This document shows positions 34,287-53,409 of a DNA stretch of 64,000 nt, piece after piece. Made by a program: the position numbers and the translations under genes. Each line of letters starts with the position of its first letter. Positions within the stretch are counted from its first letter, which is position 1. This DNA comes from Candidatus Bipolaricaulota bacterium (GTDB lineage Bacteria; Bipolaricaulota; Bipolaricaulia; M55B111): the NCBI GenBank assembly GCA_021735245.1, contig JAIPHJ010000006.1:2610-66609 (forward strand). The letters run 5' to 3'. The notes under the pieces are model-generated. The model had not been told where the DNA came from and did no database searches. It saw only the letters and a program-made list of their open reading frames with translations.

Positions 34287-34329
34287 TCGGACCTCCTTTA
34301 ATTAATTCTTCCTGCGAGCTCGAGAACTC

Positions 34330-37977: not shown

Positions 37978-38058
37978 ATAGTTTCGATACCGACCTTCCG
38001 CGCGGACAATGGGAGCCCGCGCTGGTACTGGGACTTAAGTCAATCTCAAAGAAAAGCT

Positions 38059-39414: not shown

Positions 39415-39444
39415 GGCTTTACCTCCTTTACTATTTTTTACGCT

Positions 39445-39522
39445 TCACCAAAACTTGCCGAGGAAGCCCCAGGGCGACCCCCGGGGAGGAATTGTCCGGG
39501 TGCGGGGTTGTAGTTATTGACT
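39445..39522. repeat. Family-A repeat, copy 2 (78-bp mini version lacking the inverted-repeat core)
   Basis: TCACCAAAACTTGCCGAGGAAG-CCCCAGGGCGACCCCCGGGG-AGGAATTGTCCGG..TTGACT. It fills the korB / malic-enzyme spacer, and its TTGACT overlaps the last codons of korB. Confidence 0.75.
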
Positions 39523-40380
39523 CTGCAGGTAGTCGTCTGCAACTTCGCAGTAGGTAGGTCTGTCTATGTCGACGAAATTCCCGACAACTATCTCCGCTTC
39601 CGGATCACGTTCTATTTCCGCCTCGCTCGGGTCGGATTCGTGCTTTATGACGGCTCTATTTTGGTAACTTTTCAGCTCGTCAATTCCTTCTCCGAGATCG
39701 TTCTTTCTTCCGTAACCGGTTGGACAGGGAGATAATATCTCGACAAAGGAGAAGCCTTTTTTCGAGAGAGCGTCTTCCATAGCTTGCTGGATCCTTCTGG
39801 CGTGAACGGAAGTCCACCGGGCGACGTAAACCGCTCCCGCGGAAGCGGCCAGGTCGGGAAGGTTAAAAGGATTTTCGTAGTTGCCGTAGGGAGACGTGGT
39901 TGCAGTCGCGCCCCGTGGGGTTGTGGGACCAAATTGCCCGCCTGTCATTCCGAAGTTGTAATTGTTTACGCAGATAACCGTCATATCCAGATTACGTCTT
40001 GCTGCGTGGATAAAGTGGTTGCCGCCGATGGCAAATAGGTCCCCGTCGCCGCTGAATACGGTTACGTTCATTTCCGGGTTGGAGAGTTTTAATCCCGTGG
40101 CGAACGGTATTGCCCGTCCGTGCGTCGTGTGGTAAGAATCCGTCTCGAAATAACCCGCCGCCCTTCCGGAGCAACCTATCCCGGATACTACACCGATATC
40201 GTCTATCGGAATCTCGAGTTTCTCGTAAGCGTTCGTAAGGCTCGTCACGGCGGATCCAAGACCACAGCCGGAACACCAGATGTGCGGTAACCTTTCCTCT
40301 CTGAGGTATTTGGTTGCGGGATGTTCGGCCGACGTTAATTCTGGTTTTACTTCTTCTTTTTGCTTGAGTTCTGTCGTCAT
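39514..40380 (-). CDS. korB: 2-oxoacid:ferredoxin oxidoreductase beta (TPP-binding) subunit; 2-oxoglutarate specificity inferred from context only
   Basis: 288 aa. WCSGCG, GIGCSGR and SGDGDLFAIGGNHFIHAARRN motifs. Confidence 0.85.
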   Translation of the reverse strand: MTTELKQKEEVKPELTSAEHPATKYLREERLPHIWCSGCGLGSAVTSLTNAYEKLEIPIDDIGVVSGIGCSGRAAGYFETDSYHTTHGRAIPFATGLKLSNPEMNVTVFSGDGDLFAIGGNHFIHAARRNLDMTVICVNNYNFGMTGGQFGPTTPRGATATTSPYGNYENPFNLPDLAASAGAVYVARWTSVHARRIQQAMEDALSKKGFSFVEILSPCPTGYGRKNDLGEGIDELKSYQNRAVIKHESDPSEAEIERDPEAEIVVGNFVDIDRPTYCEVADDYLQSQ

Positions 40381-41522
40381 AACAAAGCCTCCAGGCTTTC
40401 GAGAATCTGGTCTGGTTCGTGCAAACCTCCGCCGGGATGAGGTACTAGCTTTACTTCGGCATTGCCCGCGGTTGCTCGTTCGACTTCCCTGACCATCTGT
40501 CCCAGGTTGATTTCGGGAACGACTATTCCTTTTACCTGTTTACTAAATTCTTTTATCCTGTCGTCCGGGAAGGGCCATACAGTTACCAGTCGAACTATAC
40601 CTGCCTTTATTCCCTTTTCCCTTGCTCGTTTGTATGCCCCCATAGCCGTTCTAAACGCCATCCCGTAGGATACAATCAGTACTTCGGCATCTTCTATACC
40701 TATCGTTTCGATTTCCACGATATCGTCCTTGTTCTTCTCTACCTTATCAACGAGCCTTCCGACCTTCTCTTGTTGAGTTTCTACGTCGAGCTGGGGGTAA
40801 CCCTGTTGATTGTGGGTGAGGCCGGTTACGTGAACTCTGTATCCCTCTCCTGCCGAGGCCATGTGAGGCACCAGGTCCTCGTCAGGTTCGTAAGGTTTGA
40901 ATTCGTCGGGGTCTACTTCGGGCTTCCGACGGGGATAGATTTCGACTTTGTTTTCGTCGATCTCCACCCGTTCTCGCATGTGACCGATTTTCTCGTCGGC
41001 CATCACGAAGACGGGCATCATGTACTGTTCGGCTTTGTTAAATGCCTTTACCGTGAAGTCGAACATTTCCTGGGGGGACGTGGGTGCGTAGGCGATTACT
41101 CCGTAATCTCCATGAGATCCCCATTGTGCTTGCATCATGTCTCCTTGCCCAACTGCCGTTGGTAGACCCGTGCTTGGAGAACCCCGCTGAATATTTGCGA
41201 TAACGCAGGGAGTTTCCGTCATCATACCCAGCCCTATGTTCTCCATCATTAATGAAAAACCGGGACCGGAGGTCGCGGTCATCGATCTGGATCCACCCCA
41301 GGAACCGCCGAGAACGGCGGCAATTGAACTCAGCTCGTCCTCCATCTGGATGAACCTGCCGCCGACTTCGGGCATCCTCTTCGACATCCTTTCCGCTATC
41401 TCGGACTGAGGCGTTATCGGGTATCCGGCGAAGAACCTGCAGCCAGCAGCAAGAGCCCCCTCGGCACAGGCTTCGTCACCGTTCATGAAGTGTTTACCCG
41501 TCATCATGGCTTCGTCACTCAT
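40377..41522 (-). CDS. korA: 2-oxoacid:ferredoxin oxidoreductase alpha subunit
   Basis: The track ORF (to 41582) over-extends. The start is taken at ATG 41522 (MSDEAMMTGKHFMNGDEACAEGA) behind AGGAGGGG, overlapping the korD stop by 8 nt. Confidence 0.85.
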   Translation of the reverse strand: MSDEAMMTGKHFMNGDEACAEGALAAGCRFFAGYPITPQSEIAERMSKRMPEVGGRFIQMEDELSSIAAVLGGSWGGSRSMTATSGPGFSLMMENIGLGMMTETPCVIANIQRGSPSTGLPTAVGQGDMMQAQWGSHGDYGVIAYAPTSPQEMFDFTVKAFNKAEQYMMPVFVMADEKIGHMRERVEIDENKVEIYPRRKPEVDPDEFKPYEPDEDLVPHMASAGEGYRVHVTGLTHNQQGYPQLDVETQQEKVGRLVDKVEKNKDDIVEIETIGIEDAEVLIVSYGMAFRTAMGAYKRAREKGIKAGIVRLVTVWPFPDDRIKEFSKQVKGIVVPEINLGQMVREVERATAGNAEVKLVPHPGGGLHEPDQILESLEALL

Positions 41523-41790
41523 TTGTCCCCTCCTTTTCGTCCCATATCGCGAAGTCCGGGCATATGATGCTGCAGAACCCACAGTTCACGCACTTATCTA
41601 TTGCCGTTGGTTCTGGCGGATGGTATCCCTTCTCGTTAAATCCCGCCGATTCCTCGAGTACTTCCTGAGGGCAAAATTCAATGCAGTATCCGCATCCCTT
41701 GCAGTAGTCTTCTCTTATGTAAATATATCCTTTGTCCGTAGGCCATTTTTCGGTAGCCTTTTCCTTTTCTATTTCTGTACTCATATTCAC
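41515..41790 (-). CDS. korD: 2-oxoacid:ferredoxin oxidoreductase delta subunit (2x[4Fe-4S] ferredoxin)
   Basis: 91 aa. CKGCGYCIEFCP and CVNCGFCSIICP. Confidence 0.85.
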   Translation of the reverse strand: MNMSTEIEKEKATEKWPTDKGYIYIREDYCKGCGYCIEFCPQEVLEESAGFNEKGYHPPEPTAIDKCVNCGFCSIICPDFAIWDEKEGTNE

Positions 41791-41818
41791 CCTTTAATTA
41801 AATGTAATGTAATAAGTT

Positions 41819-43498
41819 CTATAATACATCAATGGATCTAGACAGTGTCTCCTCGCCCCTGTACTCAGGAACCAGCATCGGAGACTTTCTCTTCTCGTCA
41901 ACCCCCGCATTATCGAGCTGGTCGGTGTATTTTTTGGCGTGATCCAGCGTCAGCTCGCCCCAGCCGGTCTCCCTGGCTCTCTTCGCCGCTGCGATTCCGG
42001 CACGCTTGCCAAATACGTTGTAATCCAGCAGTGAGTTCCCCATCAGTCGGTTCTTTCCGTGAACACCGCCTTCTACTTCCCCCCCGGCGAACAGACCTTC
42101 CACAGCCGTTCGTCCTTCGTCGTTTATCTCTATCCCTCCATTCTGATAGTGAAGTGTGGGGAACACTAGCAGCGGATCTTCCGTGGGATCGATTCTGAAC
42201 CGGGTGTAAAGCCTGTGGATGTAAGCGAGATTGTCTTCAAACGTTCCTTCTCCGTGTAATATGTCGATCATCGGCGTGTCGAGCCATACTCCCTTCATGC
42301 CGGTAGGCGTTTCTACCCCGTTATTTCTACCGTAGCATTCCCTGATCAATGCACCCGCCTCGACGTCTCTTGGCTCGAGGTTGTAGACGAAAGCATCTCC
42401 TTCGCGATTAACCGGTATCGCCCCGGAACCCCGAACTTTCTCAGTCACCAGCAGGCCGACGATTTGTTCGGGGAAGGCCGCGCCGGTGGGGTGGTACTGA
42501 ACTGAATCCATGTCCAGAAGGTTTGCTCCCGCCCTGTAAGCCATAACCAGGCCGTCTGCCGTTGCGCCGTAATGGTTCGTGGTCGGGAATTCCTGAATGT
42601 GTAATCGGCCAAATCCACCGGTCGCCATTACCACGGATTTTGCTCTGACGACGTAGTACTGGTCCGTTTCCAGGTTGTATAATAACGCCCCTGTGATTGT
42701 ACCGTCGGAATCGGTCAACAGCTCTACTGCCGGGGAAAATTCTACCACGGGAACGTCCCTGTTTCTCGCTTCGTCTCTTATGGTCCGCATTAGCTCCATT
42801 CCGGTGTAATCCTTTGCCGAGTGAAGTCTTTTCCTCGAAGTTCCTCCCCCGTGGAGAGTCTTCATGGAACCGTCCTCGTTCTTGTCATACATCACTCCGA
42901 GGTCCTCGTGCCAGTTCAGGATTTCCGGAGCGTCTTTGGCAAGTGCCCGGGCCAACTCCGGCTTGTTTGCGAAGTGGCCTCCACCGATTACGTCCAGGAA
43001 ATGCGCCGCCGGACTGTCGTTTTCCCTGTCGGCAGCTTGAATTCCACCCTGGGCCATCATCGAATTGGCGTCTCCGTGTCGTAACTTGGTGGCGATGAGT
43101 ACGTCCTCCGGGTCGATGCCTTCCTTGATTGCCCAGAGGGAAGCCACAGTACCTGCTCCGCCCCCGCCAATAACCAGTACGTCTACCTCGTAATCTACTT
43201 TGGTCAGGTCGACTTCCGAAGGATCGACGGCGGGATAAGCCTCCAGCAGGTCGGCAAGCTCCAGCGGCATCTCGTCGCCGCGATTGGGGCCCACCTTCAG
43301 GGACCGCATTCCCTCTTCCTTGTAATCGGGGTGGAAATTGTTCAATACCTCATCCCGTTCGTCCGGGTCCATCATGTCTACTTCCTTCTCGAGCCTTTCT
43401 TCTCGAGTTTCTTCTACCTTCTTTATGGACTCCCGCATCGATTCGGAATAAGGGTCCTCTTCTGCGCTGTCGTTACGATTCAATTTCCCGGTTCTCAT
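41819..43498 (-). CDS. Fumarate reductase/succinate dehydrogenase-type FAD flavoprotein (FrdA/TfrA-like)
   Basis: 559 aa. Dinucleotide fold VDVLVIGGGGAGTVASLWA, SVQYHPTG, and HGKNRLMGNSLLDYNVFGKRAG (compare SdhA HGANRLG.NSL). The start could alternatively be ATG 43438. Confidence 0.75.
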   Translation of the reverse strand: MRTGKLNRNDSAEEDPYSESMRESIKKVEETREERLEKEVDMMDPDERDEVLNNFHPDYKEEGMRSLKVGPNRGDEMPLELADLLEAYPAVDPSEVDLTKVDYEVDVLVIGGGGAGTVASLWAIKEGIDPEDVLIATKLRHGDANSMMAQGGIQAADRENDSPAAHFLDVIGGGHFANKPELARALAKDAPEILNWHEDLGVMYDKNEDGSMKTLHGGGTSRKRLHSAKDYTGMELMRTIRDEARNRDVPVVEFSPAVELLTDSDGTITGALLYNLETDQYYVVRAKSVVMATGGFGRLHIQEFPTTNHYGATADGLVMAYRAGANLLDMDSVQYHPTGAAFPEQIVGLLVTEKVRGSGAIPVNREGDAFVYNLEPRDVEAGALIRECYGRNNGVETPTGMKGVWLDTPMIDILHGEGTFEDNLAYIHRLYTRFRIDPTEDPLLVFPTLHYQNGGIEINDEGRTAVEGLFAGGEVEGGVHGKNRLMGNSLLDYNVFGKRAGIAAAKRARETGWGELTLDHAKKYTDQLDNAGVDEKRKSPMLVPEYRGEETLSRSIDVL

Positions 43499-44162
43499 AT
43501 CTTTCTCTCAGTTCCTCCTCTGGCAGGTTGACCAGTTCTTCTAATTCGTCGTCAAACACGCCGTTATTAATTTCTTCAACTCTTTCCTTCAGGTGCTCGG
43601 ATTCCGGCGCCTGATATCGTCCGTAGATCCTCCGGGCGAGTTGCCCCACGTGGTGGTGAGGAATCTCGGCCGGGCAGCGGGCAGCGCAAAGACCGCACTG
43701 TATGCAGTCAAAGGATAATTCGGCTACTTCCTTAACGTTCCCCCTTATAGCTTCGTTAACGAAATCCATAACCTCCAGGTCCTGAGGGCACGTCTTCGTA
43801 CAGGTATTGCACGAAACACATCTTGCCAGCTCCGGATAGAGGTCGAGCAAAGGATTGTTCGATATCTCCAGCTCTTCCAGGTCGTATTGCTTTCTCCCGG
43901 CCGGAGTAAACGGTAGTTGAGTCAAGTACATGCCGTCCTGGACAGTCGTCTGGCAGGCCAGGTCGGTGTGGAGCTTGTAATCGCCCTCCAATCTGTAAAT
44001 CGTAGAGCAGGCACCGCAAAAACCCCCTCGGCACCCTACCCCTCGGATATATTGATAACCGCTGTACTCCATCGCCTTCATTATCGTCAAACCTCTGGGG
44101 ACCTCGTACTTCTTCCCCATTATGAATATTTCCAGGGTTTCGGTTTCCGGTTTATCAAGCAC
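43473..44162 (-). CDS. Fumarate reductase/succinate dehydrogenase-type iron-sulfur subunit (FrdB-like)
   Basis: 229 aa. N-terminal plant-type 2Fe-2S spacing CRGGFCGACS..C, then CVSCNTCTKTCP and CIQCGLCAARCP. Confidence 0.75.
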   Translation of the reverse strand: MLDKPETETLEIFIMGKKYEVPRGLTIMKAMEYSGYQYIRGVGCRGGFCGACSTIYRLEGDYKLHTDLACQTTVQDGMYLTQLPFTPAGRKQYDLEELEISNNPLLDLYPELARCVSCNTCTKTCPQDLEVMDFVNEAIRGNVKEVAELSFDCIQCGLCAARCPAEIPHHHVGQLARRIYGRYQAPESEHLKERVEEINNGVFDDELEELVNLPEEELRERYENREIES

Positions 44163-44166
44163 GATA

Positions 44167-45063
44167 TCACCTCTCGCTGCCCGCTTTAGTCTTTAATTCG
44201 AGAACTTCTCTCGGATCTATCGCGTGTTCGGCGAACTTGTTAACTTCTGGGTACCCAAACGCGATCGCCATCAATTGAGTGAAGTAAATAACCGGCACGG
44301 GTTTATGATTCGGAGCTACTTCGAGTAAATCGGACTGTCTGCTGTCCAGGTTGAAATGGCAGAGAGGACAGGCCGTAATGATGACGTCTGCTCCGGATTT
44401 TTTCGCCCCGGCGGTAATAGTTTGAGTCTTGTTTAAAACCATTTCCTCGTTGTCGACGGTATTATAGGAGCCGCAGCATTCCGTTTCGTAAGGAAAATCC
44501 ACTGGGGTTCCCCCAAGGCTCTCCACCAGTTCGTCGAATACAGTAGGATCGTGGGGATCGTCTAGACCGATCTCTTTTGGCCTGGTAAGCATACAGCCGT
44601 AGTAAGGAGCTACGTTTAGACCTTCCAGAGGGTTAACGACCCGGTCTCGTACCTCACCCCAGCCAAGGTCGTCGCGGAGTAACTCCAGGTAATGATGGAC
44701 TTCTACGCTCCCTTCGTAATCGTTCTCCTGGTCCATGAAGTTGTTTATCTTGTCTCTCTTGTCCTCTTCTCCCCTTACAAGCGAGTTCGCCCGTTTGAGG
44801 GTATTGTCACACATCGAACATAACGTGTACAGTTCGTCCGATCCCTCGTCGCGAGCCCTGATCAGGTTTCTGATCGGGCCAAGCTGTTTCATAAGGTTAT
44901 CATCGGTCAGGGAATATACCGTTCCACAGCAGTTCCATCGGGAAAGTTCTTTTAGGTTTACGCCCATCTCTTCCGATACCTTCAACGCGGAATCTTCAAA
45001 GCTTTTCGCGGCCTCTTTTAAGCTGCAACCCGGGTAATAAGCAATATCTCTCATTTCTATCAA
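44167..45063 (-). CDS. HdrB-like protein with two CCG (Cys-rich) domains
   Basis: 298 aa. YYPGCS..WNCCGT and YYGCM..ECCGS..CPLCHFNL patterns, as in HdrB/SdhE/TfrB C-terminal domains. Confidence 0.8.
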   Translation of the reverse strand: MIEMRDIAYYPGCSLKEAAKSFEDSALKVSEEMGVNLKELSRWNCCGTVYSLTDDNLMKQLGPIRNLIRARDEGSDELYTLCSMCDNTLKRANSLVRGEEDKRDKINNFMDQENDYEGSVEVHHYLELLRDDLGWGEVRDRVVNPLEGLNVAPYYGCMLTRPKEIGLDDPHDPTVFDELVESLGGTPVDFPYETECCGSYNTVDNEEMVLNKTQTITAGAKKSGADVIITACPLCHFNLDSRQSDLLEVAPNHKPVPVIYFTQLMAIAFGYPEVNKFAEHAIDPREVLELKTKAGSER

Positions 45064-45443
45064 CCGGTCTTTTTCCGGAGATTGCTAACCAGAGCTATTT
45101 CGGGTAGGTCCTTGGTCTCTAGTTCGTTTAGATCGACCCTGTCCAAATTTTTTCTCAGGCTGATTTCCCTCATTGCCTCCATTATCGCCGGTACGTCGTT
45201 GCCCTTCGGGCAATCAACTTCGCAGCTAAGACAGGAGGCGCAGGTCCAGGGGGTGTTGGAATCCAGGACGGATCCGTCGCCCATCTGAACCTTTCTAAGA
45301 ACCTGATTGGGCAATTGATCCATTTCTTCGGTAAACGGACACCCGGCGGAACACTTACCACATTGGTAGCAGGAAAATATATTTTCCCCGCTCAGTTCTT
45401 CTACTTCTGCCGTGAGGTCACGGTCGGAATTGGTTAAGTCCAT
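45060..45443 (-). CDS. HdrC-like 2x[4Fe-4S] protein
   Basis: 127 aa. CYQCGKCSAGCP and CASCLSCEVDCP. ATGA overlap with the HdrB-like gene; GGAGG RBS. Confidence 0.8.
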   Translation of the reverse strand: MDLTNSDRDLTAEVEELSGENIFSCYQCGKCSAGCPFTEEMDQLPNQVLRKVQMGDGSVLDSNTPWTCASCLSCEVDCPKGNDVPAIMEAMREISLRKNLDRVDLNELETKDLPEIALVSNLRKKTG

Positions 45444-45652
45444 ATTGCCTCCGGTTTTTCCTAATTGAGCTTACCTGGTAATCGTTCGATAAAACCGCAG
45501 GTGATTTCCCCAGCGAGGAAATCACTGCTTCCGATCTCGGCCTCGCTCTCCGCCCTTTCAGAGAAAGGGTGGAATCGTGCCCGCTCGGCCTCCGATAGGA
45601 TTTTCCTGAACGATCACCAGGTGAGCTAGTTATAGTTGTTGATACACCTTTA
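45444..45652 (-). other. 209-nt hairpin-rich spacer inside the operon (between mvhA and the hdrC-like gene)
   Basis: A long-range 19-bp stem pairs 45469-45487 with 45608-45626 (17 Watson-Crick pairs, 1 wobble, 1 mismatch). Inside it are perfect hairpins at 45501-45525 (9 bp) and 45553-45569 (7 bp), plus the direct repeat CTCGGCCTC at 45536 and 45584. Confidence 0.6.
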
Positions 45653-47110
45653 TTACCTTTCAATTTCTTTTATTAATTCTCCTTCCGAATCGTAGATGCT
45701 CAAACCAACGTTCAACCCACCGTCAACGCTGTGAGTCGCGCAGGCAAGGCAGGGATCGTAGGGTCGAAAACCCATTTCTACCTGATTTAGCACCTGTTCG
45801 TCGTTCATTCCGTCATCCAGAGCTTCGAGAGCTGCCTGTTTTATCGAGATGGAAAGAGCCGCGCTGTTGCTAGTAGTGGGAACGATCATGTTTGCACTCT
45901 CTACCAGACCTTCATCGTCCAAATTGTAACCGTGTATGAGCGTTCCCCGAGCGGCTTCAATCACTCCAACTCCCTCGCCGGGCTCTTCGACGGGGGACCT
46001 GAGGTCATCACTCGTTATTCCTTCTTTGGACGCCAGTTTGTTAATCCTCTCCGCGGCCTGGACCATTTCTATCAGCCTTGCCCAGTGGTAGGCGTAAGTC
46101 TGGTGAACGGGAGTACCGTCGAAATGATCGACGTACCTCTCGTACTCTTCCTGGGCGAGGTCCGTTTTCATTCCTTCCGCAACGTTTAGCCTCGCCAGCG
46201 GCCCGACCCTAAATACCCCGCTATCTTCCCCGGCCTGGAAATCCTTCCAGCCAACTTCTTTCAGGTAGGGGAATTTAACGTAAGTCCAGGGTTCGACCCT
46301 TTCTTCGAGCAGGTCCATTGCCTCCGAAGTCTCGGTTCTAAGGAATTCTTCCCCCGCTGGATCGACTACCCTGATGTCTCCGTCGTAGAACGAGACCTCA
46401 CCCCGATCGCCGACCAAGCCCATGTAGTAGGAGTTAAGCGAGTATTCCCGGTCGTCGACTAACGAACCGAACTTTTCCGTATCGATTACTTTCTCGCGGA
46501 ACAAATCCAGGGTTTCCCGGGCGAAGTCGAGCGCTGACTCGCCTATCGAGATCAATTTATCTTTTTCTTCCGGGGTTATTCCCTGAGATAGGCCACCCGG
46601 TACTCCCGTGACGGGATGAACCTGGTGTCCGCCAATTATTTCGATCGCTTCGTGGGCTAACCTGCGGGTACTGATAACCTTCTTTCCTGCCTCCTCCCCC
46701 AGTGCATTAATTACGCCAACTATGTTTCTTTCCGCCTTTTTTCCGTCCTCTACCAGGAAGTCAGGCCCTCCGAGGTAAAACAGATGGAGCAGGTGGTCGG
46801 CAAATATGTAGGAGTTATAAAGTAGCTCTCTGAGGTCCAGGGCAGTACGAGGGGGAGCAGTCGAAAACGCTGCGTCAAGGGCCTTGGTCGAGGCGAAATG
46901 GTGAGCTTCCGGGCATACCCCGCATATCCTTTCCGTAATTCTGGGCATTTCTTCCCCCTTCCGCCCCCGGGAGAACTCCTCGAATCCCCTGAGTTCGGGA
47001 ACCTGAAGAACGGCGTCTTCCGGCATGCCGTTCTCGTCCAGGAAGATTTCTATCTTTCCGTGCCCCTCCAGCCTGGTAATTGGATCGATGGATATCTTAC
47101 GTTCGGTCAT
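45653..47110 (-). CDS. mvhA: [NiFe] hydrogenase large subunit, Mvh/F420-non-reducing type
   Basis: 485 aa. N-terminal RLEGHGKIEIF and RICGVCPEAHH (CxxC). C-terminal DPCLACATH Ni-ligand motif. Confidence 0.85.
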   Translation of the reverse strand: MTERKISIDPITRLEGHGKIEIFLDENGMPEDAVLQVPELRGFEEFSRGRKGEEMPRITERICGVCPEAHHFASTKALDAAFSTAPPRTALDLRELLYNSYIFADHLLHLFYLGGPDFLVEDGKKAERNIVGVINALGEEAGKKVISTRRLAHEAIEIIGGHQVHPVTGVPGGLSQGITPEEKDKLISIGESALDFARETLDLFREKVIDTEKFGSLVDDREYSLNSYYMGLVGDRGEVSFYDGDIRVVDPAGEEFLRTETSEAMDLLEERVEPWTYVKFPYLKEVGWKDFQAGEDSGVFRVGPLARLNVAEGMKTDLAQEEYERYVDHFDGTPVHQTYAYHWARLIEMVQAAERINKLASKEGITSDDLRSPVEEPGEGVGVIEAARGTLIHGYNLDDEGLVESANMIVPTTSNSAALSISIKQAALEALDDGMNDEQVLNQVEMGFRPYDPCLACATHSVDGGLNVGLSIYDSEGELIKEIER

Positions 47111-48092
47111 TCTCGCCTCCCTCGGAAACTTTTCCGCCGAAGATCGAATTCGAAAGTGAAAAGGTGTAAAAAGTCCCTATTGGATCCGGAAGGTTGCTCA
47201 ATAGTTCCTTTTCCCGTTCCAGGGCTTGACCTTCCTCCCCAAGTTGAAGTACGGAGGCCAGGCTGTTTAGCATCTCCGTGCCCTGATCCTCGACCTTCGG
47301 AGGTGGGCCAAAACAACCCTTACAGGGCATATTTACCGCCGGACAACTACCGTCACAACCGCTCCTTGTTACAGGTCCCATACAAATTATCCCCTGATCG
47401 AGCAAGCACCTGTCGGGATCTATCTCTACTTCCTGAGGTCTTACCAGTTCATCTATCGTTTCCCGATTCCACTCTCTCGAACACTCGTCACAGACCGTCT
47501 TGCTTCCCGCTACGACTGATCCTTTCTCGGGTAACTCTCCCTTTACTAAAAGGTCGAGAAAATCCTCGGTAAGATCGGGAGGAGGCGGGCAACCGGGAAC
47601 CGTGTAATCTACGTCGACCACCCGATCCAGGTTTCTTACCCTCTCCTGAAGCCCCGGCAGGTTCAGTGTTTGTCCGTCTTTTTTCGTCGATTCTCGAGGG
47701 GTGATGCCATCGGGGTTGTTGCTCGTTGGGGTTCCTCTGTAGACCGTATCGAACAATTCTTTTTTTTCGCTCATGTTTGCCATACCCGGGATTCCGCCCT
47801 GGTGGGCGCAGGACCCGTAGGCAACGAGCAGTTCGGACTTTTCTCTCAACAGTTCGGCTATCTCTTCGTTTTCGGTCGTCCTGATACCTCCGTTAAAGAA
47901 GGTCAGGTCGAGTTCGTTTTTTCCGTAGCCTTTTAGATCGTCGTACTTGAAATCCGTCGCTGCTGGCCAAAAAGCAATATCGGCGTAATCGAGCAGGTCC
48001 AGTATTCTTTCGTGCAACCCTAATAACGCAACGTCACAGCCCCCACATGAAGCAGCCCAGTAGGCGCCTATTTTCTTCTTATTCTTGGGCAT
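47097..48092 (-). CDS. mvhG: [NiFe] hydrogenase small subunit, cytoplasmic (no twin-arginine signal)
   Basis: The track ORF (to 48155) over-extends into mvhD. The start is taken at ATG 48092 (MPKNKKKIGAYWAASCGGCDVALLG). The C-terminal half has further Fe-S Cys clusters. 14-nt overlaps on both sides. Confidence 0.8.
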   Translation of the reverse strand: MPKNKKKIGAYWAASCGGCDVALLGLHERILDLLDYADIAFWPAATDFKYDDLKGYGKNELDLTFFNGGIRTTENEEIAELLREKSELLVAYGSCAHQGGIPGMANMSEKKELFDTVYRGTPTSNNPDGITPRESTKKDGQTLNLPGLQERVRNLDRVVDVDYTVPGCPPPPDLTEDFLDLLVKGELPEKGSVVAGSKTVCDECSREWNRETIDELVRPQEVEIDPDRCLLDQGIICMGPVTRSGCDGSCPAVNMPCKGCFGPPPKVEDQGTEMLNSLASVLQLGEEGQALEREKELLSNLPDPIGTFYTFSLSNSIFGGKVSEGGENDRT

Positions 48093-48495
48093 TGCTAAAC
48101 GGCCCCGGTCCAAGTTCTTTAATTTCGGCAGTAAAGTCCTCCACGGTGCGGGCAAACTTTTCCCCCTCCGTAGCCGAAATCCATTCCAGCCTGACCCTAT
48201 CCGGATTCAGGCCGAAGTCCTCAAGAACGTGTTTCAGCAGGGCCACTCGCCTCCAGGTTTTGTAATTACCGCTTGTATAATGACAGTCCCCGGGATGACA
48301 GCCGCTTACGAGGACGCCGTCCGCACCGTCCTTTAACGCTTTGACAATGTGATTGACGTCTATTCTGCCCGAACAATTTACTGTAATCGGTACGAGGTTC
48401 GAGGGATAGCTCTCTCTGCTTACCCCGGCCAGGTCAGCTCCCGCGGAAGAACACCATTTACAGAGAAAACCAACCAATTTGGGTTCAAAATCCAT
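48079..48495 (-). CDS. mvhD: Methyl-viologen-reducing hydrogenase delta subunit (MvhD/FlpD)
   Basis: 138 aa. KLVGFLCKWCSSAGADLAG..VNCSGRID..VLVSGCHPGDCHY, the conserved MvhD Cys pattern. Confidence 0.85.
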   Translation of the reverse strand: MDFEPKLVGFLCKWCSSAGADLAGVSRESYPSNLVPITVNCSGRIDVNHIVKALKDGADGVLVSGCHPGDCHYTSGNYKTWRRVALLKHVLEDFGLNPDRVRLEWISATEGEKFARTVEDFTAEIKELGPGPFSNAQE

Positions 48496-48497
48496 GG

Positions 48498-50459
48498 TTA
48501 ATCACCGATGTGAGCGTGGATCATTTCCGTCAGTTGTTCATCCGTTAAGTTCCTTAAATTTAACGCGTTGGTCGGGCATCCGGAAGCACAGGTTCCACAG
48601 CCCTCGCAGAGTATCTCGTTTACCTCGGCAACGCCCTGAGAGTTTATTTCGAGGGCGTCGTAGGGGCACTGGCCGACGCATAATCCACAGCCGCTACAGA
48701 GATCTTCGTCTATTTCGACTACTTGTGGGTCGTGAGATATCTTCGGCTTGGCCAGTAGGTCTATGGCCTTGGCCGCGGCACCGCTTCCCTGCGAAACGGA
48801 ATCCGGAATGTCTTTTGGTCCCTGACCCGTTCCTGCAAAGAAGACGCCTCCGGTTAGACTCTCCACCGGCCTCAACTTGGGGTGAGCTTCCTTGAAGAAA
48901 CCGTTAGCGCCGAGGTTCAAGTTCAACTTTTTGCTCGTTTCGTCAGTTCCCTCGGATGGAACTACCGACTGAGCCAGGACGACGAGGTCGGCATCGATCT
49001 CCACTCTCTCGCCGGCTATCTCGTCCAAACCCCATATTCTCATCTTTCCGTCGGCTCTCTTTAGCTTCGATACCTTTCCTTTGAGGTAAAGGACTCTGTC
49101 CTCCTCCCGGACGTCCTGAATGAACTCTTCGTAATTCTTTCCACCCGCCCGGATATCTATGTAGAACACGTATGCATTACCCTCGGGAACGCTTTCCTTA
49201 TATAATTTTGCATGTTTTGCAGTGTACATGCAGCAGATTTTCGAACAATAAGAATTGTGATTTTCCGGGTCCCGGGATCCGGAACACTGGATGAAGACCA
49301 CGTTCTCCGGTATTTTACCGTCGGAAGGCCTCCGAACTACTCCACCTGTCGGGCCGGTCGCCGAAAGTAGCCTCTCAAACTGGAGTCCGTCGATTACGTC
49401 CTCGTACTTCCCGTAACCGTATTCTCCCATCTCCTCTTTCGGATAGAGGTCGTATCCCGTTGCTACTATTATTGCCCCGAATTCCTCCTCCAAGTACTCG
49501 GAACTCTGGTCGAAATCTATTGCGTCGGCGTCGCAGGCTTCGGAACACTCGCTGCACCTTAGCGGATTCAGGCCGAGACACGAGTCCGTATCCAGAGTGT
49601 AAGAGGATGGAATCGCCTGAGAAAACGGGATATTTATTGCCTTGCGGGTCTCGAGACCCTGGTTGAACTCGTCGGTTACTTCCACCGGACAGGCGTCCTC
49701 GCAGTCCCCGCAGAGGTTGCAGGCGTCCTCGTCAACATAGGTGGGTTTCCTCTCTATTTGAGCACTGTAATTTCCCACGTAGCCAGAAATATCTTTTACC
49801 TCGCTGTAGGCCATCAGTTCAATATTCGGGTGCTGATTTAATTCAACCATTTTGGGAGTCAGAATACACTGAGAACAGTCCAGCGTGGGGAAAGTCTCGG
49901 ACAGCTGGGCCATGTGCCCACCGATGGTAGGTTCTTTTTCAACCAAAATTACCTCGTTACCGGCTTCGGCCACGTCCAGTGCGGCCTGAATCCCCGCTAT
50001 TCCTCCGCCGATAACCAGGCATTTGGCTGAGTGTTCTCGCTCCACGGGCTCCATTGAGACGTTCCTCTTTACTTTTTCCACTGCCCCTTTAATTATTTTG
50101 AGTGCCTTTTGGGTGGGCCTGTCGCCGGCTTCGCCGTGAACCCAGGAGCACTGTTCTCTTATATTGGCTATCTCGCACTGATATCGATTCAACCCGACGT
50201 CCTCTACCGCTCCCCGGAAAGTATCTTCGTGCATCGAGGGGGAGCAGGCTGCAACGACGACCCCGGTCAAGTTCTCTTCCTCGATTGCCTCCTTTATTTT
50301 GTTCTGGCCGGGGTCAGAGCACATGTACTCGTAGTCGGTACTAAATGAGACGTTGTCGTAACCGATGATCTCTTCTGCCAGGTCCGATACGTCAACCGTT
50401 CCCGCGATGTTTTCTCCACAGTGGCAGATAAAGACACCGATCCTTGGCTTAATAGCCAT
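48498..50459 (-). CDS. hdrA: HdrA-like FAD/Fe-S flavoprotein (electron-bifurcating subunit type)
   Basis: The track ORF (to 50519) over-extends into korG. The start is taken at ATG 50459 (MAIKPRIGVFICHCGENIAG) behind GGGAGG. FAD fold VIGGGIAGIQAALDVAEAG, inserted ferredoxin domains (CNLCGDCEDACP, CSECSEACDADAI) and a C-terminal CSGCGLCVGQCP / CEGCGTCASGCP. Confidence 0.85.
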   Translation of the reverse strand: MAIKPRIGVFICHCGENIAGTVDVSDLAEEIIGYDNVSFSTDYEYMCSDPGQNKIKEAIEEENLTGVVVAACSPSMHEDTFRGAVEDVGLNRYQCEIANIREQCSWVHGEAGDRPTQKALKIIKGAVEKVKRNVSMEPVEREHSAKCLVIGGGIAGIQAALDVAEAGNEVILVEKEPTIGGHMAQLSETFPTLDCSQCILTPKMVELNQHPNIELMAYSEVKDISGYVGNYSAQIERKPTYVDEDACNLCGDCEDACPVEVTDEFNQGLETRKAINIPFSQAIPSSYTLDTDSCLGLNPLRCSECSEACDADAIDFDQSSEYLEEEFGAIIVATGYDLYPKEEMGEYGYGKYEDVIDGLQFERLLSATGPTGGVVRRPSDGKIPENVVFIQCSGSRDPENHNSYCSKICCMYTAKHAKLYKESVPEGNAYVFYIDIRAGGKNYEEFIQDVREEDRVLYLKGKVSKLKRADGKMRIWGLDEIAGERVEIDADLVVLAQSVVPSEGTDETSKKLNLNLGANGFFKEAHPKLRPVESLTGGVFFAGTGQGPKDIPDSVSQGSGAAAKAIDLLAKPKISHDPQVVEIDEDLCSGCGLCVGQCPYDALEINSQGVAEVNEILCEGCGTCASGCPTNALNLRNLTDEQLTEMIHAHIGD

Positions 50460-50460
50460 G

Positions 50461-51021
50461 TTACCTCCCGGTAATTTTTTCTTTGACCAGCTCCGATCCG
50501 TATTCGTACCCACTTTCAAACGCTCGCTCGTTTAGGTCTTCGGTGCCTTCGGGTACGGACGAGAGAACGGACTCTTTCATCTTTGCCCTGTCTACGGCTT
50601 CCGTTATAGCTACCAGGGCGCCTAACATGACTACGTTGGCGACTATTTTATGTCCCAGATCTTCCGCGATCTTTGTGGCGGGTACCTGGTACTGTTTTAC
50701 CCCCCCGGGTTGCTCATCTTCTTCAACCAGATCTTTTTCCAGCAACATAATTCCGCCGTCCTGAATTTGATCGCTGTATTTCTCGTAAGCTTCCTGGGAC
50801 ATCAGGACAAGAATTTCGGGAACCGTGATCTGTGGGTAATCGATCTTTTCGTCTTCAATAACTACGTCGGCGCTGCAGGCTCCGCCTCGTGCTTCGGGCC
50901 CGTAAGATTGGATCAGTACAGCGTTTTTGTCTTCGAAGATAGACGCTGCCTTTCCCGTCATGTTTCCCGCGGATATTATTCCCTGGCCCCCGAAGCCGCC
51001 AAATCTTATTTCCTTCCTCAC
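50461..51021 (-). CDS. korG: 2-oxoacid:ferredoxin oxidoreductase gamma subunit
   Basis: 186 aa. IRFGGFGGQGIISAGNMTGKAA..QSYGPEARGGACSADVVI, a typical gamma subunit. First gene of the 12-gene unit. Confidence 0.85.
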   Translation of the reverse strand: MRKEIRFGGFGGQGIISAGNMTGKAASIFEDKNAVLIQSYGPEARGGACSADVVIEDEKIDYPQITVPEILVLMSQEAYEKYSDQIQDGGIMLLEKDLVEEDEQPGGVKQYQVPATKIAEDLGHKIVANVVMLGALVAITEAVDRAKMKESVLSSVPEGTEDLNERAFESGYEYGSELVKEKITGR

Positions 51022-51261
51022 TTTACCACCCTCTATACCTCGATTTGTCCTCTTGATTTCTTTTTAAGATAGTATCGGTCCGAAGATTCTCGTTCCATGA
51101 TCAAAATCAACCAGTAAGCTGATTAAACTCAATTTAGACCGCGAGCACGAATTGCTTTTATTGACTTACGGAGAATACCCCGTACTCTGGACGGAGATGA
51201 GTTCGGAAATTCGTATTTAAATTGAAATCGAGGCGGCAAAGCCATGAATCGGGCGTAATTT

Positions 51262-51289
51262 CCCGCCCGGAAGGGCGGGGTAGTTGACT
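51262..51289. repeat. Solo right-end module of the family-A repeat (GGAA-loop hairpin + TTGACT)
   Basis: CCCGCCC-GGAA-GGGCGGG-gtag-TTGACT matches 56414-56440 (CCGCCC-GGAA-GGGCGG-agaaa-TTGACT). Confidence 0.6.
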
Positions 51290-51517
51290 CTCTTTAATTC
51301 GATAAGCCGTATGGCTCCGGGTGTTCCGGATCTTTTGGTACAGCGAACCGATAAGCTGCGATCGCCGAATATTGTGGAATGGTAATTAAGGTAGGTGGAT
51401 AAACCGTAGTTCGAAACTAATTAAGAACCCCCAGGATTTTTCCCGGGGGTAATGAAAATCTTCGACAAGTTTTATCGTCTGGAGCGAAGGTCCTGTTTAA
51501 GTTAGTATTTAATCCAA

Positions 51518-52129
51518 TTAATTGGTGAACACGGAATTCGATATGTTCCGGTTTACCCTGATATCGTAGACCCTTGCGGTTCCGTTTTCGTCCTCCACCC
51601 TGAACTCCTCACCTTCCATCTCCTGCCATTCCTTGACTCTATAGGTGAGATACCGGTCGGCCCTGTTTTGCCACATCTGAGTGAAGGCAAGTCCGGTAAA
51701 GTAAGTCCATTCGCTGGAGGAATAATCATTCACCCATCCTTCGTTCGTGCTACCCTTTAAAATGATGGTCATTTCGGCCCCGTCGTCCCTGGTGGAATCG
51801 ATTCGGATGTCCTCGGTCTCGGTCTCGGGTTGTCTTACCCTGAACCTGTGAGTGTAGCTTTCATCATCCGTGGTTACGTCAACTTTGAAGTCCAGGCTCG
51901 TAACGTTACCTGACAGGTCCGACTTATCTTCTTGCTTGGAGGTAACTCCAGTATCTTTCTGGTCTAACTGGGTTTCTTTATACTGCTGGCTTTCCTCGGG
52001 TGTCCGTTCCACGGTCGGCTGTCCTAATTCTGCCCGGGGAACCATTTGGGTGTCCATTAAAGTGCCACTGACCAGGGCAACTCCTACCACCAATCCCGCC
52101 ACCATTAATAACAACAACACCTTATCCAT
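51518..52129 (-). CDS. Hypothetical exported/membrane-anchored protein
   Basis: The track ORF (to 52303) overlaps the S41 peptidase gene. The start is taken at ATG 52129 (MDKVLLLLMVAGLVVGVALVSG) behind GGGAGG. The acidic mature part has no recognisable motif. Confidence 0.5.
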   Translation of the reverse strand: MDKVLLLLMVAGLVVGVALVSGTLMDTQMVPRAELGQPTVERTPEESQQYKETQLDQKDTGVTSKQEDKSDLSGNVTSLDFKVDVTTDDESYTHRFRVRQPETETEDIRIDSTRDDGAEMTIILKGSTNEGWVNDYSSSEWTYFTGLAFTQMWQNRADRYLTYRVKEWQEMEGEEFRVEDENGTARVYDIRVNRNISNSVFTN

Positions 52130-52248
52130 ACTGCATACCTCCCTTTCCCACGATACTAAACTTTTTGAAATTTTTTCGCAAAGATAAGTTCGGATAGAGT
52201 GGGTTCCGGGATATTGGCGGTATAGCGAAAGCGCTGCTCCCGTAGCTT

Positions 52249-53409
52249 TTAACCTTCCTCCTTGCCTGGAGGCATGAGCTGGCCCCGATTTTCCTTTATC
52301 CACTCTATTGCCCTGGTTAGATCTCCGCTCCGGTCTTCCGATTTTATGTCGGGGGTAAGCCCTTTTTCGTTCAGCCTGGACCCTCCCGGGGTCAGGTATT
52401 CGGCTGAAGATAGTTTTACTCTTATTCCCCGGCCCACGTTGTGGGTCGTCTGGACGAGACCCTTCCCGAAGCTGCGCCGTCCGACCAGTATTCCCATTCC
52501 CTGGTCCCTAATGGCTCCCGCTACGAGTTCCGAAGCGCTTGCCGTCCCGTCGTTTATCAGCACCACCAGCGGCAAATTCGGGTTGGAATTACCCCTGGAT
52601 TCGTATTTTCGGACCCCGTCCCGACCGACCGTTTTTGTTATTAAACCACTATCCACGAACTGACTGGCTACTTTAATGGCAGAGTTAAGCAAGCCACCGG
52701 AATTATTCCGCAGGTCAAGTACGTAGCCGGAAAGTTTCTCGCTCTCGATACTATTAAAGACTTTTTCTAGTTCTTGGGCCGTTTGCTGGTTAAACAGGTT
52801 AATGTCGATCAGAGCTATCTTATCATCTTCAAGCAGCGTCAATTCCACGGGAGTGATTTCTATCTTCTCCCTTATCAGGCTGATCGTTTCTTCGCTGTCG
52901 TCCGGGTGCCTTATCGTAATCCGTACTGTCGTACCTCGTTCTCCTTTCAGGGCGTCGAATACTTCCCTGAAGTTCATGGGTTCCGTAGATTTTTCGTCGA
53001 CACTGAGGATCACGTCTCCAGACCTTAAATCATTACGCGAAGCCGGCGTATCCGGAAACACTGAAACTACTCTAACGCGGTCGTCGGATTTTTCAATTTC
53101 CATACCTATTCCCACGTAGTTTCCTTCTTGCCTTTTACGGTACTCTTTGTATTCTTTTTTCGAGTAGACGTCGTTGTACTCGTCAGGTAACTGGTTCAGC
53201 ATTCCCTCTATTGCGCCCCGAATTAATTCTTCCTTATCGATTGACTCGCTGTCGTAGTAATTACTCAGGATTAGTTCGTAAGCTTCCCGGACCGGTTTCA
53301 ACTCCTCATTTACCGACCGGCGATCTTCCCCGGGTACCTGGGTTGTGAGACAGACCAAGAGGACAACCGGTATGAGAAAAACCCATTTGCTTCTGGAGAT
53401 TTTGTTCAC
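52249..53409 (-). CDS. S41-family C-terminal processing peptidase with PDZ domain
   Basis: The start is taken at GTG 53409 (AAGGAGGA 7 nt upstream; MNKISRSKWVFLIPVVLLVCL signal). PDZ region GDVILSVDEKS. Catalytic region NSGGLLNSA and ASASELVAGA..FGKG. Confidence 0.85.
   Translation of the reverse strand: MNKISRSKWVFLIPVVLLVCLTTQVPGEDRRSVNEELKPVREAYELILSNYYDSESIDKEELIRGAIEGMLNQLPDEYNDVYSKKEYKEYRKRQEGNYVGIGMEIEKSDDRVRVVSVFPDTPASRNDLRSGDVILSVDEKSTEPMNFREVFDALKGERGTTVRITIRHPDDSEETISLIREKIEITPVELTLLEDDKIALIDINLFNQQTAQELEKVFNSIESEKLSGYVLDLRNNSGGLLNSAIKVASQFVDSGLITKTVGRDGVRKYESRGNSNPNLPLVVLINDGTASASELVAGAIRDQGMGILVGRRSFGKGLVQTTHNVGRGIRVKLSSAEYLTPGGSRLNEKGLTPDIKSEDRSGDLTRAIEWIKENRGQLMPPGKEEG

Follow-up and report, generated by a model that had tools for sequence, protein, structure and literature searches.

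The twelve-gene set and its relatives

We analysed a stretch of 64,000 nucleotides (nt) from a Candidatus Bipolaricaulota bacterium (assembly GCA_021735245.1, contig JAIPHJ010000006.1), referred to here as the window; unless other loci are named, coordinates, counts and family searches refer to it and to the proteins it encodes. Its minus strand carries twelve genes in the order korG, hdrA, mvhD, mvhG, mvhA, hdrC-like, hdrB-like, frdB-like, frdA-like, korD, korA and korB (Table 1), which brings together a [NiFe] hydrogenase (Mvh), proteins of the heterodisulfide reductase type (Hdr), a fumarate reductase-like pair (FrdBA) and a four-subunit 2-oxoacid:ferredoxin oxidoreductase (Kor). This order had been proposed in a first-pass annotation made from the letters alone, and it was confirmed at the same coordinates from the list of open reading frames (ORFs). 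The junction sizes given there (gaps of 1-28 nt, overlaps of 4-26 nt and one spacer of 209 nt) were reproduced on recomputation: from korG to korB they measure +1, +2, -14, -14, +209, -4, +4, -26, +28, -8 and -4 nt. A Shine-Dalgarno-like GGAGG or GAGG precedes most of the twelve starts, that of hdrA being the ATG at 50459 within a longer TTG ORF, and Pfam and NCBIfam assignments match the gene labels first chosen.

Malic enzyme follows 99 nt past korB, and genes for fumarase, a DASS symporter and succinyl-CoA synthetase come next (32167-39414); the unit probably extends downstream into these genes. In relatives, malic enzyme occupies the same place in three loci (L001, L007, L009) and the symporter in one (L001). 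Directly upstream of the set lies a minus-strand ORF of 261 aa (51518-52303) that matches no Pfam family; the hairpin following it is the strongest terminator-like site of the region and, as a consensus match, the likely 5' limit of the unit. Consensus scans for promoters and terminators gave counts no higher than in shuffled sequence and are neutral as to a single transcript, and the terminator scan placed no site on the minus strand within the 209-nt spacer.

Table 1. Features of the twelve-gene set and its surroundings in the window (scores in bits, model cutoffs in brackets)
Feature	Coordinates	Strand	Evidence
korG, gamma subunit of four-subunit 2-oxoacid:ferredoxin oxidoreductase	50461-51021	minus	Pfam POR 113.6; NCBIfam PRK08537 232.5 (cutoff 235)
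hdrA, FAD and iron-sulfur flavoprotein	48498-50459	minus	5odc_A match 680; NCBIfam HdrA2 809 (cutoff 1100)
mvhD, [2Fe-2S] adaptor between hydrogenase and HdrA	48079-48495	minus	Pfam FlpD 176.6
mvhG, [NiFe]-hydrogenase small subunit	47097-48092	minus	NCBIfam VhuG 202.8; Pfam Oxidored_q6
mvhA, [NiFe]-hydrogenase large subunit, group-3c-like	45653-47110	minus	MvhA 5odc_F 351; NCBIfam VhuA 386.9 (cutoff 800)
Spacer between mvhA and hdrC-like, 209 nt	45444-45652	minus	ORF junctions
Dispersed repeat inside the spacer, ~148 nt	45474-45621	no strand	~14-nt terminal inverted repeats
hdrC-like, two [4Fe-4S]	45060-45443	minus	8 Cys; NCBIfam HdrC 63 (cutoff 350)
hdrB-like, two CCG domains	44167-45063	minus	Pfam CCG x2; NCBIfam HdrB 166 (cutoff 345)
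frdB-like, [2Fe-2S] and two [4Fe-4S]	43473-44162	minus	Pfam Fer2 and Fer4 families; 12 Cys
frdA-like flavoprotein	41819-43498	minus	Pfam FAD_binding_2, residues 106-490; NCBIfam TfrA 309.8 (cutoff 718)
korD, delta subunit, two [4Fe-4S]	41515-41790	minus	NCBIfam OGOR_delta 73.3 (cutoff 125); 8 Cys
korA, alpha subunit	40377-41522	minus	NCBIfam PRK08659 565 (cutoff 411); Pfam POR_N and PFOR_II
korB, beta (thiamine-diphosphate) subunit	39514-40380	minus	NCBIfam 2-oxoglutarate ferredoxin oxidoreductase beta 254 (cutoff 364); TPP_enzyme_C
Malic enzyme	38059-39414	minus	Pfam malic and Malic_M; NCBIfam NADP-dependent malic enzyme subfamily 324.6
Class I fumarase alpha	36610-37494	minus	NCBIfam PRK06246 310.9 (cutoff 276)
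Class I fumarase beta	36023-36679	minus	TIGR00723 206.1 (cutoff 145)
DASS-family sodium-coupled dicarboxylate symporter	34330-35871	minus	TIGR00785 286.1 (cutoff 198.6)
Succinyl-CoA synthetase beta	33138-34286	minus	NCBIfam PRK00696 441.5 (cutoff 370)
Succinyl-CoA synthetase alpha	32167-33042	plus	TIGR01019 430.3 (cutoff 353)
Terminator-like hairpin after the gene upstream of korG	51427-51450	minus	10-bp stem, 7 G-C pairs, T-rich tail; consensus match only

Relatives were compared at 80 retained species-level loci with an FrdA-like protein, taken from at least 581 confirmed candidates. Window proteins were searched by tblastn on 85 loci, and genes were counted only on the same strand and in the retrieved flanks (10 kb), which makes the linkage counts lower bounds, many contigs being short or cut. 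Hypersaline sites, among them Great Salt Lake and 'Tobar', are the origin of the Candidatus Bipolaricaulota (Acetothermia) genomes whose proteins share 85-93% identity with the FrdA-like protein; for proteins from Thermoplasmata, Theionarchaea, Methanofastidiosum, Bathyarchaeia, Heimdallarchaeota, Chloroflexota, WOR-3, Spirochaetota and other groups, the identity is 57-71%. In 76 of the 80 loci frdB-like adjoins frdA-like; hdrB was found nearby in 60, hdrC in 58, hdrA in 51, mvhD in 44, korA in 40 and mvhA in 36, and mvhA, hdrA, hdrB and korA all accompany frdA in 20. The commonest adjacencies between modules are hdrB->frdB (44/80), frdA->korD (35/80) and korG->hdrA (21/80), and hdrA->mvhD occurs in 43. 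The neighbourhood is thus kept, with shuffled order, over Bipolaricaulota, Anaerolineae, Thermoplasmata, Heimdallarchaeota and others, and the conservation of this frd-hdr-mvh-kor linkage across phyla supports a functional coupling, as judged from gene order.

All twelve genes are present in 12 loci, each of them an exact rotation of the cyclic order korD-A-B-G-hdrA-mvhD-G-A-hdrC-B-frdB-A. The rotation starting with korG, the window's own, is found in four loci (Bipolaricaulota and one metagenome-assembled genome of the Anaerolineae), that starting with korD in two and that starting with hdrA in six, the latter two kinds all from Thermoplasmata. Of the rest, 24 partial loci agree with the cycle, 11 show fewer than four of the genes, and 33 depart from it, for example as frdBA-korDABG-hdrA-hdrCB-mvhGA or hdrCB-korDABG-hdrA-mvhD-...-frdBA. 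The departing forms also include a four-gene core hdrC-hdrB-frdB-frdA, e.g. in L016 and L044. The order of the window recurs in six independent assemblies (L001, L006, L009, L048, L078, L096), and two shorter contigs (L007, L053) keep it as far as they reach; the arrangement is therefore no assembly accident.

It had been suggested that eight genes were inserted at the gamma/delta junction of a kor operon running G-D-A-B. This view does not hold, as most relatives have an intact D-A-B-G block beside the module: the window order is one of three exact rotations, and therefore a lineage-specific rotation rather than an insertion into G-D-A-B. The synteny G-[8 genes]-D-A-B itself does exist in the four complete korG-first loci, the other complete loci being rotated. 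We also rejected a recent horizontal insertion of the eight genes, since G+C is even (0.49-0.54) over 38-52 kb and rotations explain the order better. A circular intermediate would be expected to leave such a rotation pattern, and so would a tandem duplication that later lost its ends.

Some loci differ in content. In L033 (Thermoplasmata AUK146) and L046 there are two hdrC-hdrB pairs, one by mvh/hdrA and one by frdBA, or several copies of hdrA and mvhD; it is in loci of this type that a thiol shuttle or two separate complexes would be most plausible. Four others (L031 of the Fraserbacteria, L077 of the Thermoplasmata, and L049 and L051 of the Chloroflexales) have kor, hdrA-mvhD, hdrCB and frdBA with no hydrogenase genes found nearby by tblastn, and HdrA may receive its electrons from another donor there. 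A homologue of ComA, the phosphosulfolactate synthase of the coenzyme M pathway, is encoded about 9 kb downstream of the cluster in one Thermoplasmata genome (L004/L005, 20426-21439), which may be a coincidence.

In a comparison with L011/L012 and L048/L053, the FrdA-like and FrdB-like proteins of the window are closer to their counterparts in halophilic Thermoplasmata (71% and 64% identity) than to the Acetothermia ones from elsewhere in that group (63% and 60%). KorA and HdrA show the opposite trend, with 49% and 46% in the halophilic Thermoplasmata against 60% and 63% in other Acetothermia. Either a transfer of frdBA between co-habiting halophiles or convergent salt adaptation would account for the contrast.

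Properties of the encoded proteins

HdrA, the electron-bifurcating subunit in Hdr complexes of methanogens, contains 29 cysteines and aligns over its full length (residues 4-647) with residues 3-646 of 5odc_A. MvhD has five cysteines. MvhA has only four, all within RICGVCPEAHH and DPCLACATH, i.e. the two CxxC motifs that provide the NiFe ligands; with MvhA as best match in the Protein Data Bank (PDB), a VhuA score that lies below cutoff and these motifs, the large subunit is group-3c-like, in line with the expected group 3c. MvhG (12 cysteines) starts with MPKNKKKIGAYWAASCGGC (MPKNKKKIG) and has no RR motif, so that its N-terminus bears out the predicted lack of a twin-arginine signal. The HdrC-like protein is short (127 aa); it matches residues 30-107 of the 184-aa HdrC (5odc_C, 9sfi_E), lacks the C-terminal third and carries its eight cysteines in two CxxCxxCxxxCP motifs. 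In the HdrB-like protein all ten CCG-motif cysteines are kept (C13, 45, 46, 82, 85, 157, 196, 197, 232, 235). It aligns with methanogen HdrB 8rvu_b at 150 bits and scores about equally with the models for HdrB and for SdhE of methylmenaquinol:fumarate reductase (158 bits for the latter, cutoff 500). All three Hdr proteins score below the equivalog cutoffs for HdrA, HdrB and HdrC (Table 1).

All proteins of the cluster look cytoplasmic, as had been proposed. None contains an anchor-like hydrophobic segment or matches an anchor family in Pfam or NCBIfam, the top 19-residue hydropathy (1.85) belonging to a buried strand of KorG. Nor is an NAD(P)H-binding protein encoded in 39514-51021: the sole Rossmann-type matches in Pfam are the flavin adenine dinucleotide (FAD) sites of HdrA and the FrdA-like protein. 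The cluster proteins are all acidic (D+E 14-21% versus K+R about 10%), which fits a salt-adapted organism.

The 12 cysteines of the FrdB-like protein form a Cx4Cx2C...C pattern, typical of a plant-type [2Fe-2S] cluster, and two CxxCxxCxxxCP motifs; Pfam detects no CCG domain. From E. coli FrdB it is so divergent (E = 0.004) that comparison with solved FrdB or SdhB structures is unusable. The idea that TfrB of thiol:fumarate reductase (Tfr) is split here into separate proteins gains support from weak matches that succeed one another along the TfrB profile, at 19-85 for the FrdB-like, 168-224 for the HdrC-like and 262-484 for the HdrB-like protein (45, 25 and 38 bits versus a cutoff of 385). In source annotations, FrdB-like homologues are variously called 'HdrC', '4Fe-4S dicluster protein' or 'Fe-S oxidoreductase'.

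For the FrdA-like protein, TfrA is the best NCBIfam model, matched over profile positions 6-427 of 546, followed by SdhA/FrdA (279) and NadB (261; TIGR00551, cutoff 452.75). Together with the conserved fumarate-site residues, this ranking does not place the protein in a non-fumarate family, the outcome that would have spoken against the first-pass annotation. Its N-terminal extension of about 100 residues is conserved in 19 diverse members and is confidently predicted in the AlphaFold model (overall pLDDT 71.6). At the other end, no match to Succ_DH_flav_C (PF02910) was found, and the protein stops about 75 residues past R484. Aligned to FrdA and Sdh1, N145 takes the position of the covalent-FAD histidine of FrdA/SdhA; it is invariant in 19 relatives, and FAD is predicted to be bound non-covalently. 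Likewise invariant in 19 relatives are H336, T352/E353/R356, R377 (LEPRD), H450 and R484. The substrate-binding and proton-shuttle residues of E. coli FrdA (H232, T244/E245, R287, H355, R390) therefore have counterparts, of which R377 was placed by the LEPRD motif as the HMMER alignment shifts that stretch. Since L-aspartate oxidase has these residues in common, they do not alone prove fumarate as substrate. A Foldseek search of the PDB with the model returned complex II flavoproteins first, at TM scores of 0.56-0.60, with L-aspartate oxidase about equal (0.55-0.60), so that the fold leaves the substrate unsettled. Judged by the N-terminal extension, the shortened C-terminus and the predicted non-covalent FAD, the FrdA-like protein is a member of a distinct subfamily.

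Two other identities were rejected. A stand-alone NadB disagrees with a NadB score below both the cutoff and the TfrA and SdhA/FrdA scores, and with the iron-sulfur partner that adjoins in 76 of 80 genomes; for a membrane-bound complex II, the anchor, the covalent-FAD histidine and the C-terminal domain are all missing from the searched cluster.

The four Kor subunits are all present and intact (POR; POR_N and PFOR_II; TPP_enzyme_C; a delta subunit with two [4Fe-4S] sites). For KorA, the next-best model is the alpha subunit of 2-oxoglutarate synthase, and PorA/VorA models reach 89-101; KorB scores 65 bits with the PorB model. Among the models tried on the Kor subunits, VorB is intermediate (305 bits). 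The best substrate-specific models are thus those for 2-oxoglutarate, and the generic alpha model PRK08659 is the only one to pass its cutoff. The context of succinyl-CoA synthetase and fumarase supports 2-oxoglutarate as the Kor substrate. Malic enzyme, fumarase, FrdBA, succinyl-CoA synthetase and Kor, all encoded at the locus, together cover the whole route between pyruvate and 2-oxoglutarate. In methanogens, this reductive branch provides the 2-oxoglutarate for glutamate, and Tfr catalyses the fumarate step.

Proposed electron flow to fumarate and ferredoxin

Gene content, intact cofactor motifs and conserved linkage are the observations to be explained. The reading that we favour, and consider somewhat probable, is that the cluster specifies an H2-dependent fumarate reductase, soluble and cytoplasmic, with a bifurcating HdrA at its core and with Kor taking up the low-potential electrons; we infer that the products form a complex, that this complex bifurcates, that it runs in the direction of fumarate reduction and that FrdBA is wired directly to the Hdr proteins. 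According to this proposal, H2 would be oxidised by MvhAG and electrons would pass via MvhD to the FAD of HdrA, which would split each pair. The high-potential electron would travel through the clusters of the HdrC-like and HdrB-like proteins to the FrdB-like protein and on to the FAD of the FrdA-like protein, where fumarate would be reduced to succinate. The low-potential electron would leave by the ferredoxin domains of HdrA, either to free ferredoxin or straight to KorD. The net reaction would be 2 H2 + fumarate + Fd(ox) -> succinate + Fd(red) + 2 H+ (Fd, ferredoxin), and KorDABG would carboxylate the succinyl-CoA made from that succinate, serving the reductive route from pyruvate to 2-oxoglutarate. 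Since FrdBA lacks a domain for electron input and the cluster has a single hdrCB pair, FrdBA needs the Hdr proteins to supply its electrons. The tight junctions with their ribosome-binding sites, a spacer free of terminator-like sites, the pathway genes downstream and the best Kor scores, those with 2-oxoglutarate families, also count in favour of this reading.

Energetics were calculated from E0' values of -414 mV for H2, +33 mV for fumarate (PMC5861303) and about -500 mV for ferredoxin. Under standard conditions, the fumarate branch amounts to about -86 kJ and the ferredoxin branch to about +17 kJ, the net being about -70 kJ per 2 H2, which is enough for operation at very low H2. Each succinate would come with one Fd(red), the amount required to carboxylate one succinyl-CoA, which would directly explain the linkage to kor.

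Several points weigh against this proposal. The HdrB-like protein keeps a complete disulfide-reducing CCG site, which direct wiring does not strictly need, and a second hdrBC could lie in the genome beyond the window, the window being the scope of the analysis. No fusion supports a contact between FrdB and CCG proteins, such fusions numbering zero among the 120 best FrdB-like homologues. The models specific for 2-oxoglutarate:ferredoxin oxidoreductase (OGOR) all remain below cutoff (alpha 393/579, beta 254/364, delta 73/125), leaving the specificity of Kor unproven. Among the relatives, 33 of 80 loci are off the cyclic order, some of them without hydrogenase genes (L031, L077), seven have no other gene of the set near frdBA (several on short contigs), and the two hdrCB pairs of L033 fit a shuttle of the kind considered below. 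All 80 loci come from uncultured organisms, as metagenome-assembled genomes.

An extension of the proposal is that all twelve proteins form one soluble super-complex without free carriers, with HdrCB/FrdB and KorD hard-wired and both outputs delivered 1:1. We regard this as unlikely; if true, both outputs of one bifurcation event would drive two steps of one pathway, and fumarate would be the long-sought high-potential acceptor of many 'Mvh-Hdr' complexes of non-methanogens.

An alternative that we likewise hold to be improbable has the same net chemistry and differs by a diffusible thiol carrier between the halves: MvhADG-HdrA-HdrCB would, as in methanogens, bifurcate to ferredoxin and a heterodisulfide, and FrdBA would re-oxidise the thiols with fumarate via a CCG site. 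The Mvh/Hdr/TFR/OGOR cluster of Ca. Celaenobacter has been interpreted in this way (PMC8542988), and methanogen TfrAB, as cited in PMC6315080, is a precedent. It would also agree with the ten disulfide-site cysteines of the HdrB-like protein, with the L033 hdrCB pairs, one by mvh/hdrA and one by frdBA, and with the ComA homologue that a Thermoplasmata relative encodes 9 kb away from the cluster. In the window and in all 12 complete rotations, however, the hdrCB pair is single and the FrdB-like protein has no CCG domain, so that one CCG site would both reduce and re-oxidise the same carrier, which would be pointless. HdrA and the HdrB-like, HdrC-like and FrdA-like proteins also score far under the equivalog cutoffs of the coenzyme M/coenzyme B (CoM/CoB) enzymes, and we know of no synthesis of coenzyme M or B in Bipolaricaulota.

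It seems very unlikely that the system runs in reverse, by confurcation in a fermentation of 2-oxoglutarate or glutamate in which Fd(red) from Kor and succinate would yield H2, and fumarate would be converted via malate to pyruvate. KOR, SucCD, TfrA, FumAB and MaeA have been read in this oxidative sense in Culexarchaeia (PMC9723716), whereas group 3c hydrogenases are typically H2-oxidising (PMC8542988). The 1:1 ratio of ferredoxin to succinate works both ways, a dicarboxylate symporter adjoins and bifurcating enzymes are in principle reversible. By our calculation, however, the donors average about -233 mV and would reduce protons only below about 0.1 Pa H2. This is below the levels usually left by H2 consumers. 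The replacement of the covalent-FAD histidine by Asn145 also argues for the reductive direction: in E. coli FrdA His44 variants, non-covalently bound FAD reportedly allows fumarate reduction and not efficient succinate oxidation.

We give equally little credence to mere co-location, with Mvh-HdrABC serving another acceptor, FrdBA drawing on another donor, an ordinary Kor using the ferredoxin pool and clustering reflecting no more than co-regulated anaerobic redox metabolism. Mvh-Hdr genes of these phyla have indeed been annotated as ordinary heterodisulfide reductases (PMC11287216, PMC6092417), no fusion proteins join the parts among the 120 FrdB-like homologues mentioned, and the loci off the common order or devoid of other set genes near frdBA would be expected. 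Yet FrdBA would be left without an electron-input module, the adjacencies hdrB->frdB, frdA->korD and korG->hdrA recur in distant phyla, and the persistence of the gene set through three rotations would hardly be expected if the set were not under selection.

If the proposed H2-dependent fumarate reductase is correct, it would provide a cheap, membrane-independent H2 drive for the hardest carboxylation of the reductive branch of the tricarboxylic acid (TCA) cycle, with a bearing on carbon fixation and glutamate synthesis in energy-starved, H2-fed sediments and brines. To our knowledge, synthesis of CoM or CoB is not known for the non-methanogen groups with Mvh-Hdr. The Mvh-Hdr sets of many non-methanogens are nevertheless routinely annotated as CoM-CoB heterodisulfide reductases (PMC11287216, PMC6092417, PMC12542636). 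The cluster and its relatives point instead to fumarate as the acceptor, in at least 80 species-level genomes of many phyla. In current annotation, FrdB-like and FrdA-like proteins are masked by labels like 'HdrC', '4Fe-4S dicluster protein' and 'FAD-binding protein'; this could be why the link has for the most part gone unnoticed.

Spacer repeat, other genes of the window and comparison with known systems

The 209-nt spacer between mvhA and the hdrC-like gene has a predicted RNA fold of -81.2 kcal/mol (z = -5.75 versus shuffles), and an Rfam scan of 36000-52500 at E <= 1 gave no family match. Most of it is the repeat at 45474-45621, whose ends are the inverted repeats CCTGGTGATCGTTC...GAACGATTACCAGG. 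The same junction measures 19 to about 565 nt in related loci and 30-381 nt in the closest relatives. Copies of the repeat stand there at 91-94% identity in L007 (~1809-1969) and L009 (~7819-7971), in two pieces of 88-97% in L006 (~6895-7127) and at 86% in L096 (5342-5485); L009 and L096 have it inverted, and one of the four genomes has an internal insertion of about 100 nt. Sequence just beyond the repeat ends is not conserved. The repeat is absent from L001, L008 and L010, with gaps of 112, 77 and 30 nt. Its 21-nt core was found in 23 metagenome stretches (L086-L108) on about 20 contigs from a few metagenomes; only one of these contigs carries the cluster. The extra length of the spacer is thus due to a short dispersed repeat that looks like a miniature mobile or invertible element, judged from its ends and distribution, and the spacer is no sign of a separate transcription unit. 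An 81-aa ORF overlapping the spacer (45418-45663) was dismissed as spurious; it matches no family and overlaps the repeat.

Elsewhere in the window, minus-strand genes at 12557-22593 encode two MttB-family methyltransferases (12557-13987 and 14032-15483), a glutamine synthetase, an iron alcohol dehydrogenase, a glycine-betaine-type ABC transporter (OpuAC, two permeases and a CBS-domain ATPase) and a GntR/FCD regulator. With such genes, glycine betaine or a related quaternary amine may be taken up and demethylated. Two very large multi-PAS signalling proteins are encoded on the plus strand at 24924-30097, one with an HD_5/HD end (769 aa) and one with a GAF-GGDEF end (953 aa); these two genes explain why AT and GC skew are reversed locally. 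At 10416-12200 on the minus strand lies the gene for a 594-aa protein with a long coiled coil and weak matches to EzrA, apolipoprotein and filament families, all below cutoff.

The first-pass annotation was not aware of a characterised complex of this kind. In full-text literature searches we likewise found no biochemical characterisation of a bifurcating H2:fumarate enzyme, but the idea itself has been published. Rubin-Blum et al. (2019) described korABCD and tfrAB interspersed with flxABCD-hdrABC and proposed a complex feeding OGOR and a fumarate reductase (PMC6315080). Mitchell et al. (2024) reported co-expression of the flx-hdr/tfr/kor cluster in Endoriftia (PMC11636981), and a 2026 survey restates bifurcation to fumarate and ferredoxin (PMC13147460). 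For Ca. Celaenobacter (Cloacimonadota), Williams et al. (2021) described a cluster of Mvh (group 3c), Hdr, TFR, OGOR, fumarase and succinyl-CoA synthetase (PMC8542988). That the same logic was proposed independently for related clusters counts in favour of an H2-dependent fumarate reductase at the present locus. In papers on Bipolaricaulota, Thermoplasmatota and WOR-3, Mvh-Hdr and a 'fumarate reductase flavoprotein' are listed apart and unconnected (PMC11287216, PMC6092417, PMC12542636).

All six subunit types of MvhADG-HdrABC from hydrogenotrophic methanogens (5odc, 8rvu) are present here. The differences are the bacterial host, the low Hdr equivalog scores, the shorter HdrC-like protein and the position of hdrCB directly upstream of frdB-frdA, which makes fumarate rather than CoM-S-S-CoB the likely terminal acceptor. 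The Fdh-Hdr-Fmd supercomplex of Methanospirillum (7bkb) sets a precedent, as its Hdr complex physically bears a CO2-fixing enzyme that uses low-potential electrons, and its chains match HdrA and the HdrB-like, HdrC-like and FrdB-like proteins; its partner is formylmethanofuran dehydrogenase, reached via a polyferredoxin. The recurrent korG->hdrA and frdA->korD adjacencies suggest, as a hypothesis, that Kor docks to HdrA.

TfrAB of methanogens supplies succinate for 2-oxoglutarate synthesis, the role proposed here. As cited in PMC6315080, the enzyme of Methanothermobacter (Heim et al. 1998) is a soluble, anchor-free fumarate reductase, and TfrA is the best model for the FrdA-like protein. TfrB is a single polypeptide, whereas three proteins take its place here, with scores far under the cutoffs; the FrdA-like protein has the N-terminal extension and the shortened C-terminus, and its predicted donor is HdrA/H2 instead of free thiols. 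The flxABCD-hdrABC/tfrAB/korABCD clusters of tubeworm symbionts and Thioflavicoccus share the interspersion of kor and fumarate reductase genes with an HdrA module (PMC6315080). There, FlxABCD supplies electrons from NADH in place of the [NiFe] hydrogenase and H2; TfrAB is annotated with two subunits, and the hosts, which oxidise sulfur under aerobic or microaerobic conditions, have the reductive TCA cycle in full. The Ca. Celaenobacter cluster, compared by its description, has the same gene content, includes a group 3c hydrogenase and is read as H2-driven reductive TCA chemistry (PMC8542988), but with a CoM/CoB-type shuttle, in another phylum and with an ATP citrate lyase elsewhere (full cycle).

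In contrast to the window, where none is encoded, a NADH-binding subunit is present in FrdABCDE of Hydrogenobacter thermophilus (Miura et al. 2008), which the account relayed by PMC13147460 presents as soluble, anchor-free, acting in the reductive TCA cycle and equipped with extra electron-input subunits; no HdrA or bifurcation is described in that account. The joining of an Mvh-HdrA module to a split Tfr-like fumarate reductase and Kor is new relative to characterised enzymes. Two of the extra FrdABCDE subunits are reportedly Hdr-like. To the earlier proposals for related clusters, the present analysis adds evidence on how broadly the genes are associated; it also recognises the rotation pattern, defines the FrdA-like subfamily and explains the spacer.

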